Shown here piece after piece: positions 34,417 to 36,845 of a stretch of 64,000 nucleotides of DNA. Both the position numbers and the translations under genes were made by a program. The DNA is taken from NCBI RefSeq assembly GCF_055900595.2, contig NZ_CM148325.1; one strand, written 5' to 3'. The notes beneath the pieces were generated by a model that did not search any database, had not been told where the DNA came from, and saw only the letters and a program-made list of their open reading frames with translations. Numbering within the stretch: the first letter of the stretch is position 1; each line of letters begins with the position of its first letter.

Positions 34417-34430
34417 CACAACCTCTCTAT

Positions 34431-34458
34431 AAAAAAGGTGCTACGGCACCTTTTTTAT
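34431..34458. terminator. Bidirectional intrinsic terminator after cyoE
   Basis: aaaaaa-ggtgc-tacg-gcacc-tttttt hairpin flanked by A-run and T-run, 15 nt after the cyoE stop. Confidence 0.75.
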
Positions 34459-34470
34459 TGTCTGAGAACA

Positions 34471-34547
34471 GAGATACGGCTAATAACCGTATCTCTTGAC
34501 AGAGTGAGTATATGCACATAAATTAATCATACGGTTGATAGCCGTAT
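34471..34547 (+). promoter_or_regulatory. Candidate promoter and operator of the toxin-antitoxin operon
   Basis: Two copies of the palindrome ATACGG-N7-CCGTAT (about 34474-34492 and 34529-34547, centres ~55 bp apart) bracket a sigma70-like promoter (TTGACA at 34496-34501, 17-nt spacer, TAAATT at 34519-34524). Confidence 0.6.
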
Positions 34548-34600
34548 TATGCATGAGATCGACTCCCTACGATTTCATTCAGTTAATCAAAGAGGTCATA

Positions 34601-34912
34601 ATGCCTGGAAAAACAGTCGCTCTACCCGATATCGATAAAACGCTGAAAAATGCGCGGGTTGAACTCAAAACCAGTCCCGACGCCAAAAACAAACTTCGTG
34701 AAGCTGCGCAAGCCGTTGGGGTAGATTTAAGCGCTTTTATTTTGAGCGCAGCTATGGAACGCGCCGAAAGTGTGCTTGATAACCAACGTCGCCGTGAGCT
34801 TTCGAATCAAAGCTGGGAACTGATGAACCAACTCATCGCTGAACCTGCTCAACCGACGCTCGCCCTCAAGGCGTTAATGAAAAGGAAAAACAGCGATGGT
34901 CGACAAGCATGA
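34601..34912 (+). CDS. DUF1778-type ribbon-helix-helix antitoxin (TacA/AtaR/KacA-like), 103 aa
   Basis: ATG at 34601 preceded by AAGAGG RBS; core LKTSPDAKNKLREAAQAVGVDLSAFILSAAMERAESVL resembles DUF1778 antitoxins; overlaps the downstream GNAT gene by 17 nt. Confidence 0.75.
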   Translation: MPGKTVALPDIDKTLKNARVELKTSPDAKNKLREAAQAVGVDLSAFILSAAMERAESVLDNQRRRELSNQSWELMNQLIAEPAQPTLALKALMKRKNSDGRQA

Positions 34913-35438
34913 AGAGATTACTCTGCCCATAGTCCTCTCCTGTAATTATCAGTCTGATATTACTTATCCTGGGCAAAAACAGTTTGATTGCGGTAACCCT
35001 GTTATCGATAAATTTGTACGCGCATCGCTAAAGAAAAGTGTGCGTAATAGCGACTGTGCTGCTAAAGCACTTATTGACAGACAAAGTGGTGAACTGATTG
35101 GCATCTGTACTTTTACGGCATATTCGCTGGAAAAACAACGCGTTTCTGGCGTCCTTCAGGGTTCACAACCTTCAGAGATTGGTGTTGTCAGATTAGTCAT
35201 GTTAGGGGTAGCGCGGAAATATCAAAAGCGGGGCTTTGGTCAGGACCTACTATGTGATTTTTTTGAACATGTAAAAATAATTCACCGGGCATTACCAATT
35301 AAAGGGGTTTATCTTGATGCTGACCCTGCCGCCATTAACTTTTATACTCGTCTCGGCTTTGTTCAGCTTTCAGCGAGGCCCAATGTTTTCGGTGCTGTAC
35401 CGATGTTTTTAGCGATTCAGCATATTCTCGCGGCTTAG
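34896..35438 (+). CDS. GNAT-family acetyltransferase toxin (TacT/AtaT/ItaT/KacT-like), 180 aa
   Basis: ATG at 34896 with AAGGAA RBS; FDCG motif near the N-terminus (QKQFDCGNPVIDKF) and acetyl-CoA-binding motif VARKYQKRGFGQDLL typical of type II GNAT toxins; operon partner of the DUF1778 antitoxin. Confidence 0.75.
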   Translation: MVDKHEEITLPIVLSCNYQSDITYPGQKQFDCGNPVIDKFVRASLKKSVRNSDCAAKALIDRQSGELIGICTFTAYSLEKQRVSGVLQGSQPSEIGVVRLVMLGVARKYQKRGFGQDLLCDFFEHVKIIHRALPIKGVYLDADPAAINFYTRLGFVQLSARPNVFGAVPMFLAIQHILAA

Positions 35439-35682
35439 ATTATTATCGCCTCCGGCCATGGCAAGTTTTGCCTCAGCCGGAGACTGAGCAGCGTTACCAC
35501 TTTTGTTCAATTGCCCCCGCTTTCATCAGGTCCACATCCTTGCCTTTAATGGTTGCCGTTGCGGCAACGATCGTGGTCCTTATAGCTGCACAAGATTTTC
35601 GTTCAAATTCCGGTTTATAAAGAATAAGCAACGAATTACTGGTAAATGAATCAAGCCGGTAATCTGTAAAGTTAATATCCAG

Positions 35683-36429
35683 TCAGTTTAAGCCGAAAGG
35701 TGCAAAGCCGACCGTTTGAATAGTTTCCTTACCTGACGGACTCTTGATGTTGTACGTAACACGAAGATTGGCCACTTCGCCTAATTTATTGGTTTTGGCA
35801 AAGAGGCTATCCATGCAGGAAAAACCTTTATCTAAAAAATTATCCCGCATTCCAGAACGGGTAATCGTGATCACCGGTAACGTATCGTCAACCGTTTTTC
35901 TGTCAATCATATCTTTTCGACAGGCGGCCATAAAGTCTTCCGGACCAGCATAAATGTGAACACCCTTATCAAGATATTCTTTCGCTTTACTACAATCCAC
36001 CTCGACATACTGACCATTGGCGTACATCATGCCCAACCTGGACCATGCTAAATTCACACCGCGTTGCGTAGCCTGATTAAATAACGTATACGCTTTGGCG
36101 TAATCCACTCGCACCTGTTCACCTTCGTAGTAGATATTCCCCAGCGCTAACGGAGCTTCTTCATCACCTTGTTTAGCGGCTAACTCGAACCATTTAATGG
36201 CTTCCTGAACGTTGGGTTTGGTATCGTAGCGGGGCTGATAATATTCCCAGCCTAACAGGCTTTGCGCGTCGACATCCCCCGACTCAGCCATTTTATACAG
36301 TGTCCTTATCACATCGGGGGCAGGCTTTTCACTGTATATGCTGTCATACAATTCATGCGCTTTCTCGCTTGCCAGTGAACCTTGTGAGGCAATTAATAAA
36401 ATAGCCAATAAACTCTTTTTATTTAACAT
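35683..36429 (-). CDS. Secreted Sel1-like repeat (SLR/TPR-like) protein, 248 aa
   Basis: N-terminal signal peptide MLNKKSLLAILLIASQGSLASE; at least three Sel1-type repeats (LGWEYYQ..., LGNIYYEGEQV..., LGMMYANGQYV...) with AKQGD/ATQRG motifs; AT-rich. Confidence 0.7.
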   Translation of the reverse strand: MLNKKSLLAILLIASQGSLASEKAHELYDSIYSEKPAPDVIRTLYKMAESGDVDAQSLLGWEYYQPRYDTKPNVQEAIKWFELAAKQGDEEAPLALGNIYYEGEQVRVDYAKAYTLFNQATQRGVNLAWSRLGMMYANGQYVEVDCSKAKEYLDKGVHIYAGPEDFMAACRKDMIDRKTVDDTLPVITITRSGMRDNFLDKGFSCMDSLFAKTNKLGEVANLRVTYNIKSPSGKETIQTVGFAPFGLN

Positions 36430-36845
36430 AAATAACCTTTATGCATCCATCACTATATTTTTCAATATACCTAACCACCAAACATCCACTTCATGAATAA
36501 ATACACAGCCATAACAACCTCAGGTAATAAGTAAACATTTAAGCTGAAGCAGAATAACCAGCACCTCCAACACCTCTATTTATTGCGATAAAATAACACC
36601 ATCCTTTAATAAAAAATAACACACTCATCAACAAATCCGAAAATAATATCATTCGTGGCAGGATAAAATCAGGCGAGCTTTTCATTTGTTATATTTAACG
36701 CACAAAGTATTAATGGCAAGAATACGAGAGAAGCGCATGCCTGACGTAAAAATCACGCTCTTATGTAATATTTACTCATTAACACTCTGTTTACCCAACA
36801 TGCGCTCCGCACTACACTATGTGGGCAATTTTTTAAGAGGTGGTA

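Follow-up and report, generated by a model that had tools for sequence, protein, structure and literature searches.

Within a stretch of Escherichia coli DNA of 64,000 nucleotides (NCBI RefSeq assembly GCF_055900595.2, contig NZ_CM148325.1), referred to throughout as the window, the core genes cyoE and yajR are separated by an islet of ~2.3 kb (34460-36764) that carries the itaRT toxin-antitoxin (TA) operon and, convergent to it, an interrupted gene for a putatively secreted Sel1-repeat protein, termed here sel1. This islet stands in place of ~25 bp within the 148-bp cyoE-yajR spacer of K-12, and is considered, at a probability of about 0.8, to be the occupied haplotype of an old two-state polymorphism exchanged by homologous recombination, and not a recent insertion. 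Haplotype exchange of this type, taking in the promoter of the core gene downstream, would explain the presence of such an islet in housekeeping backbone without mobility genes.

The distribution of the two states was established with 5,426 complete E. coli genomes, a genome being scored as occupied when at least 80% of the islet was present in one piece. By this measure 1,366 were occupied, including BL21, IAI39, CE10 and O103 and O121 Shiga-toxin-producing E. coli (STEC), and 4,053 were empty with an uninterrupted K-12-type junction, including K-12 derivatives and an O15:H18 strain labelled ST69; about seven were neither clearly occupied nor clearly empty. The raw match count of 1,373 was set aside in favour of the coverage-based figure because it included at least one empty genome matched only via the 40-bp terminator. 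Across phylogroups, the 4,053 empty genomes all have the same junction, at 95-100% identity. At an identity of at least 99% the window allele itself was found in only 17 genomes, the other occupied ones being 88-90% identical overall. The preliminary description of this DNA had proposed that the islet was accessory, and the survey agreed: for the islet to be core, K-12 and nearly every other Escherichia would have to carry these genes, and the genomes did not have this pattern. Two further elements of that description were also confirmed, namely the short K-12 spacer (148 bp in a K-12-like genome) and a guanine-plus-cytosine (GC) content below that of the flanks, which amounted to 0.43 for the islet and 0.34 for its segment 36430-36764, as against 0.51 for the cyo operon and 0.53 for yajR.

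Comparison of BL21 (occupied) with a K-12-like strain (empty) served to define the limits of the polymorphic unit. Leftwards through the terminator that follows cyoE the two differ at 2 of 2,997 bp, and rightwards from the yajR ATG at 2 of 2,600 bp, whereas ~25% of positions differ in the 95 bp 5' of that ATG. A block so diverged within near-isogenic flanks indicates that the unit runs from just after the terminator, which is common to both haplotypes (34459 being the last shared base before divergence), to the ribosome-binding site of yajR, and that it includes the yajR promoter. The K-12-type yajR block resembles that of Citrobacter, and the occupied-type block those of Salmonella and Enterobacter. 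Both states extend beyond E. coli, with K-12-type spacers in E. whittamii and Escherichia sp. E1V33, and occupied-type loci in E. albertii and Escherichia sp. E4694. The diverged block and this trans-specific distribution, combined with the internal mosaic structure described below, point to exchange by homologous recombination. The original choice between an old acquisition and a deletion in K-12 is consequently too simple, as both states are present in other Escherichia and the divergence between them reaches into the yajR promoter block.

The equivalent information across genera came from a YajR scan that took one genome for each species and returned 80 loci. In most of the loci with both genes the cyoE-yajR distance was ~150 bp, as in E. 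whittamii, Escherichia sp. E1V33 and many Citrobacter, Enterobacter, Buttiauxella and Kosakonia, and the aligned spacers consisted of the terminator, ~25 variable bases and a conserved yajR promoter block (TAATATTTACT ... TTTACC-17-TACACT), all cargo being located in the variable stretch. Escherichia sp. E4694 has itaRT and two Sel1 genes, one of 499 aa and the one of 311 aa. E. albertii has the 311-aa Sel1 gene without a TA module, the itaRT slot (locus L008, 5956-7170) being filled by a 325-aa open reading frame (ORF) without a family, while in Escherichia sp. MOD1-EC7003 (L020, 1595-3290) the same slot holds an M20 amidohydrolase fragment; in both the cyoE terminator sequence differs. The locus of a metagenomic enterobacterium (L012) contains two Sel1 genes and a decayed ItaRT module (6927-7544), namely an orphan itaR with both operator palindromes and an itaT cut to its N-terminal part. 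Salmonella enterica has two Sel1 paralogs of ~500 aa and, between yajR and these paralogs, a 343-aa ORF (L014, 4483-5514) for which Pfam, NCBIfam and PADLOC all gave no match; in S. arizonae and S. diarizonae the site has an ORF of 352-374 aa and no Sel1 genes. Several Citrobacter (L022, 6531-7839; L023, 6535-7819; L035, 2118-3420) carry an Hcp/TssD gene (TIGR03344, E = 4e-41) together with genes for an STM2901-family protein and a 112-124-aa ORF, which looks like an orphan type VI Hcp-effector-immunity set. A Leclercia adecarboxylata metagenome-assembled genome (L047, 7085-7417) has a 110-aa glycine-rich ORF without a family match, the start of which (MKELSLNEMQYISGG) is a leader of the double-glycine type and which may encode a microcin-like peptide, and Superficieibacter has a sugar-utilisation cluster at this point.

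Alignment along the islet did not bear out the idea that it had been acquired as one unit. From the terminator through itaRT to the spacer hairpin (34400-35500) identity to IAI39 was 98-100%, with 10 mismatches in the 1,077 bp of 34417-35493 compared with 69 in the 1,365 bp of yajR. The body of sel1 (35600-36200) was by way of contrast E. albertii-like, at 96-99% identity as against 79-97% to other E. coli alleles, and the promoter region (36200-36800) had its closest match in the cryptic-clade Escherichia sp. E4694 (87-96%) and could hardly be aligned with the alleles of BL21 and IAI39. The AT-rich portion of this last segment (36430-36764) was only 55-72% identical to those two alleles, and 91.6% identical to the E4694 spacer 5' of its extra 499-aa Sel1 gene; tblastn detected no remnant of that gene in the AT-rich region. 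A 48-aa ORF in the same region (36539-36685) was rejected as a gene on the basis that it is broken by stop codons in E4694 and in a relative 98.6% identical over the ORF. A local recombination tract was likewise rejected as the source of the raised divergence near the islet, since identity to K-12 and IAI39 is 95-97% throughout the right half of the window.

Synonymous divergence (dS) followed a corresponding pattern. Values for itaRT (0.02-0.13) were below those of the backbone (cyoE ~0.11, yajR ~0.2), while those for sel1 reached 0.34-0.42 between E. coli alleles and 0.175 against E. albertii. Judged from these sequences, the islet is a mosaic of segments with apparently different histories, in which the TA module and the Sel1 gene differ in age. 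Ratios of nonsynonymous to synonymous divergence (dN/dS) were 0-0.44 for itaRT, 0.2-0.36 for sel1 and 0.00-0.05 for the flanks, which indicates that sel1 has been under purifying selection, relaxed relative to the flanks. The resultant picture, in which sel1 is old, evolves fast and is now in decay and the TA module next to it is young and spreading, hangs together but is of an ordinary kind.

Under the scheme that we favour, homologous recombination would carry a cassette without mobility genes from one lineage to another, also across species borders within Escherichia, the crossovers falling in the cyoE gene or terminator on the left, in the yajR coding sequence on the right, and also inside the cassette, the last of these generating the mosaic. 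The site flanked by the cyoE terminator and the yajR promoter would then be a family-wide soft spot at which small cargos vary by genus. Certain considerations weigh against this interpretation and its component parts. The dN/dS and mosaic assignments derive from 5-6 representative sequences. With regard to the ancestral state, Sel1 paralogs in Salmonella and in L012 argue for great age of the occupied form, and the ~150-bp spacers of many genera argue for the empty one. In the toxin, one of four natural substitutions adjoins the catalytic Y150, and for the Sel1 protein the IrmA-like fold discussed below is a predicted structure to which no similarity to IrmA could be found at the sequence level, a profile of the C-terminal domain giving nothing against the PDB at E <= 10.

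The preliminary description had identified a two-gene TA operon with operator-like palindromes, and this was confirmed and extended. The predicted toxin matches the ItaT structure in PDB entry 7BYY at 175 of 180 residues, and among PDB entries the antitoxin matched KacA (E = 3.5e-11) and AtaR (E = 8.6e-9), so that on sequence grounds the pair is the type II ItaRT module known from E. coli HS (Wilcox et al. 2018, PMC6125619; Zhang et al. 2020, PMC7367177). It shares with that module the type of locus, the gene order with the antitoxin gene first, the 17-nt overlap of itaR and itaT, and the protein sizes of 103 and 180 aa. One of the five differences from 7BYY is the G115D substitution made by the crystallographers to inactivate the toxin (PMC7367177), the window having the wild-type G115; the other four (R131, T151, R161 and V164) are natural. 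The window toxin retains Y150, which is catalytic and of which the Y150A mutant is non-toxic (PMC6125619), the acetyl-CoA motif QKRGFG with G115, the dimer-interface residues I129/A132/L133 and the basic tRNA-binding residues. The antitoxin differs from the BL21 allele at three residues, all at the N-terminus.

In E. coli HS, ItaT alone causes growth arrest and blocks protein synthesis, ItaR neutralises it (PMC6125619), and the toxin acetylates Ile-, Val- and Met-tRNA (PMC7367177). The upstream region of the HS operon has promoter activity that is repressed by the ItaR-ItaT complex and not by ItaR alone (PMC6125619). From this ortholog, at ~98% identity and with the catalytic residues intact, we infer toxicity, neutralisation, autorepression and tRNA acetylation for the window allele: ItaT would be a GNAT acetyltransferase that ItaR binds and neutralises, and the complex of the two would repress the itaRT promoter, most likely via two palindromes (O1 and O2, Table 1) that bracket its predicted -35 and -10 hexamers. 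The half-sites of both palindromes are retained in the distant relative L012, where both the central 7 nt and the neighbouring sequence are altered, and the two are good candidate operators of the complex. TacAT (Salmonella), KacAT (Klebsiella) and AtaRT (E. coli O157:H7) have the same two-domain architecture and general mechanism, aminoacyl-tRNA acetylation, but their similarity to the window pair is distant (toxins KacT, AtaT and TacT at E = 1e-6 to 8e-4; antitoxins KacA and AtaR at E = 3.5e-11 to 7e-8), and their toxins differ in aminoacyl-tRNA preference, AtaT for example acting on initiator Met-tRNA (PMC6125619).

Both stabilisation of neighbouring DNA and abortive-infection phage defence have been named as options for TA modules (PMC6125619), and it is conceivable, though we think it somewhat doubtful, that one of these and not stress-induced growth control is the main role of itaRT, with the Sel1 gene as a passenger. 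The operon has remained intact and under purifying selection while the adjacent sel1 has decayed in the window clone, and it has spread across lineages later than the divergence of the backbone, as expected of a selfish or selected module. However, 75% of E. coli are without the cassette, which argues that loss is not prevented at the population level; in L012 the antitoxin survives without the toxin; a PADLOC scan that covered ItaR, ItaT, the Sel1 protein and four further cargo proteins gave no meaningful match, so that no PADLOC model matches either ItaR or ItaT; and none of the ItaRT papers cited here contains an experiment that assigns a physiological role.

Turning from function to origin, the K-12 state might have arisen when its lineage, by a simple and recent deletion, lost an islet that the ancestor of all E. 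coli possessed, an explanation that we regard as unlikely. The presence of Sel1 genes at this position in E. albertii, cryptic Escherichia, Salmonella and L012 is compatible with it, and a stepwise decay can be traced from two Sel1 genes plus itaRT in E4694, through one in E. coli, to the pseudogene of the window, with a truncated itaT and an orphan antitoxin in L012. A plain deletion is nevertheless difficult to reconcile with an empty haplotype of which the yajR block is ~25% different in a near-identical background, or with the occurrence of the same empty spacer in E. whittamii and Escherichia sp. E1V33 and of one junction, at 95-100% identity, in 4,053 genomes across phylogroups. A spacer of ~150 bp with the same architecture is, moreover, normal in Citrobacter, Enterobacter, Buttiauxella, Kosakonia and others, and together with the diverged promoter block this weakens the proposal of an ancestral Sel1 locus from which K-12 is a plain deletion.

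It is highly improbable that the islet is a classical horizontally acquired one, brought in by a single site-specific or transpositional insertion of an element that later lost its mobility genes: the GC content below that of the flanks, a cargo of TA module plus secreted protein typical of islands, and ItaRT-like pairs on plasmids would each accord with it, but the islet has no integrase, transposase, tRNA, insertion sequence (IS) remnant or flanking direct repeat, the histories of its parts are discordant (itaRT younger than the backbone, sel1 alleles older), the replaced segment takes in the host yajR promoter, and the cargos of other genera occupy the same point without shared mobility genes. 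Specifically, there was no transposase- or integrase-sized ORF in 34417-36845, no tRNA gene in 30000-41000, no IS element or remnant at the cyoE-yajR islet, and no direct repeat pairing the islet borders (the best candidate, of 23 nt and 74% identity, lay away from them), results that upheld and, for direct repeats, extended the initial observation that integrase, IS element and tRNA were all missing from the borders. In a search of PLSDB, true plasmids of Citrobacter, Serratia and Rahnella held only ItaRT-like pairs of 65-72% nucleotide identity. The same database contains three "plasmid" records of 1.2-4.8 Mb (CP061270.1, NZ_OL790696.1 and CP099174.1) with the chromosomal itaRT locus at 97% identity, which are probably chromosomes or fragments thereof that have been misfiled.

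Integrase-free intergenic hotspots for accessory genes, exchanged via homologous recombination of their flanks, are a general concept for the E. coli core genome. The cyoE-yajR site is like them in its fixed position between two core genes, its alternative cargos, its freedom from mobility genes and its breakpoints in conserved flanks, and differs from them in being unusually small and in that the swapped cassette takes in the promoter of the downstream core gene; a literature search found no paper on a cyoE-yajR hotspot. As a tentative extension of the two-state polymorphism, the spacer might be an integrase-free, family-wide docking point for small conflict or host-interaction modules, swapped with their own yajR promoter, with the Sel1/IrmA-like proteins as its oldest tenant; cargos of this kind may include ItaRT, the Hcp-effector sets, the bacteriocin-like peptide and the Sel1 proteins. 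Were this so, the deep sel1 allele classes shared by E. coli and E. albertii would fit a protein that faces the host or competitors and has long been under balancing or diversifying selection.

Much of the islet is already known: ItaRT is published and structurally solved, and the islet is annotated in more than 1,000 complete genomes, including BL21. As the TA system has been described, the islet adds no new kind of system, and the sole lead worth an experiment is the Sel1/IrmA-like family, a small family bound to the cyoE-yajR locus in Escherichia and Salmonella that is apparently unstudied, is intact in BL21 and many STEC lineages, and has two paralogs in Salmonella. The intact protein has three Pfam Sel1 repeats, which form an alpha-solenoid, and an N-terminus (MLNKKSLLAILLIASQGSLA followed by SEK) with the n-, h- and c-region pattern of a signal peptide, suggestive of export. 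Four cysteines are invariant across 21 family members. The AlphaFold (AF2) model (predicted local distance difference test score 86.9; predicted template modelling score 0.83) consists of a helical solenoid to about residue 178 followed by an eight-strand beta-sandwich, and the C-terminal domain is accordingly predicted to be a beta-sandwich of the fibronectin type III (FNIII), IrmA-like type.

IrmA is a secreted interleukin-receptor mimic of uropathogenic E. coli (PDB 5EK5) that forms a domain-swapped dimer and binds cytokines (PMC4807369). The domain of the Sel1 family differs in being fused to a Sel1 solenoid and in its conserved cysteines. An exhaustive profile search of 1.84 billion proteins with the C-terminal domain gave 38 cluster representatives, none recognisable as IrmA; most had the same Sel1-plus-domain architecture or were fragments of it, and a few were giant multi-repeat proteins. 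With this search and that of the PDB both negative, and the short matches being fragments of the same family, a link to IrmA at the sequence level was rejected. Compared with the Sel1-repeat proteins EsiB/c5321 (PDB 4BWR), HcpC and LpnE, the family has only about 3-4 repeats, a C-terminal beta-sandwich absent from those proteins, and the four invariant cysteines. The IAI39 homolog of 35494-36429 (AlphaFold database entry A0A0H3MM38) bears the UniProt name "putative zinc-dependent hydrolase", for which domain, fold and family searches give no support.

The convergent gene for a secreted Sel1-repeat protein that had been described is thus present with its signal-peptide-like N-terminus and its repeats, but it is not intact in the window. 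The uninterrupted ORF (35683-36429, minus strand) ends at a single in-frame TGA at codon 249 of 311 (35683-35685), beyond which the frame runs on to 35494. On the plus strand these positions read TCA in the window and TCG in a 99.6%-identical relative, corresponding to a change of CGA to TGA on the coding strand (G to A at 35685 on the plus strand), and over the same span the gene is intact at 311 aa in BL21 and in the IAI39-type genome MINF_1A. The Prokaryotic Genome Annotation Pipeline (PGAP), which places three genes between cyoE and yajR in a genome identical to the window, labels sel1 with an internal stop in that genome and in another identical one, and the gene is annotated as intact in relatives at 99.3-99.6% identity. 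The stop is therefore a recent mutation limited to one 100%-identical clone, which accounts for seven or eight of the complete E. coli genomes. Truncation removes the final 63 residues, among them the invariant C280, and the beta-sandwich consequently cannot form. In intact alleles, sel1 would be expressed from the very AT-rich upstream region and its product secreted as a Sel1 solenoid with a disulfide-bonded IrmA-like beta-sandwich; in the window clone the CGA-to-TGA change has recently inactivated it.

Since the sel1 frame reaches 35494, most of the 245-bp spacer (35439-35682) that had been placed between the toxin and Sel1 genes is the dead 3' end of sel1: the true itaT-sel1 spacer measures 55 bp (35439-35493), and the remaining 189 bp are dead coding sequence. 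The palindromes reported for that interval fared accordingly. The ttgccgttgcggcaa palindrome, located inside the dead coding part, is a piece of the coding sequence for the conserved VAATATI motif and not a regulatory element, while ctccggc...gccggag is a real hairpin of the true spacer that has no U-run and probably acts as a transcript-end or stabilising structure. The terminator proposed after cyoE was confirmed as a hairpin with perfect arms, an A-tract and a T-tract, and is kept across genera of the Enterobacteriaceae with compensatory changes in the stem. An Rfam scan of 34000-37300 (E <= 1) detected no known small RNA, the sole match being STnc50 over the terminator at chance level (23.5 bits as against a gathering score of 55).

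Table 1. Features of the cyoE-yajR interval and its flanks in the window
Feature	Coordinates	Strand	Evidence or remarks
cyoE (heme o synthase), left conserved flank	33526..34416	+	NCBIfam NF003348, E = 1.2e-161; PGAP annotation of identical genome
cyoE intrinsic terminator, bidirectional type (A-tract, GGTGC stem, T-tract)	34429..34458	+	perfect 13-nt arms; fold -17.2 kcal/mol, z = -8.2
Operator-like palindrome O1, ATACGG-N7-CCGTAT, 19 bp, directly 5' of -35 hexamer	34474..34492	+	half-sites conserved in L012, central 7 nt variable
Predicted itaRT promoter, TTGACA-17-TAAATT	34496..34524	+	10/12 consensus matches
Operator-like palindrome O2, ATACGG-N7-CCGTAT, 19 bp, directly 3' of -10 hexamer	34529..34547	+	89% complementary to O1
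itaR, ribbon-helix-helix (RHH)/DUF1778 (TacA-family) antitoxin, 103 aa	34601..34912	+	Pfam TacA1 PF08681, E = 1.3e-17, residues 19-96
itaT, GNAT toxin, 180 aa	34896..35438	+	175/180 identical to PDB 7BYY ItaT, E = 1.3e-115; Pfam GNAT domains
Strong hairpin (ctccggc...gccggag) in 55-bp true itaT-sel1 spacer	35450..35482	.	-21 kcal/mol (+ strand), -27 kcal/mol (- strand); z = -2.7, -4.4
sel1 pseudogene; intact form a 311-aa putatively secreted Sel1 solenoid plus C-terminal beta-sandwich	35494..36429	-	translations of window and intact alleles
AT-rich (34% GC) region upstream of sel1, ~335 bp	36430..36764	.	hypervariable between alleles
yajR promoter/leader block, occupied-haplotype version, TAATATTTACT...TTTACC-17-TACACT...Shine-Dalgarno	36765..36845	+	conserved across Enterobacteriaceae
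yajR (MFS transporter), right conserved flank	36846..38210	+	PGAP annotation; MFS family matches

Other inserts were noted nearby. Two stretches of the window are missing from a K-12-like genome: ~1.9 kb between yajO and pgpA (46351-48292), holding a 509-aa pentapeptide-repeat ORF (46582-48111, plus strand) with weak PipB2/PipB/HetL-like matches, and ~1.65 kb between acpH and malZ (61056-62705), holding a 481-aa AT-rich ORF (61074-62519, minus strand) with no NCBIfam match. In IAI39, an IS200/IS605-family element (a TnpB gene plus degraded tnpA; L007, 40376-42662) splits a DUF3251-annotated gene at the position of K-12 yajI, and there is no such element at the corresponding place in the window. 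IAI39 also carries a ParD/RelE-ParE TA pair between yajD and secF (L007, 44318-44834), where the window has ~62 bp (about 54853-54914), which makes yajD-secF a second intergenic site of TA presence and absence, ~18 kb from cyoE-yajR.

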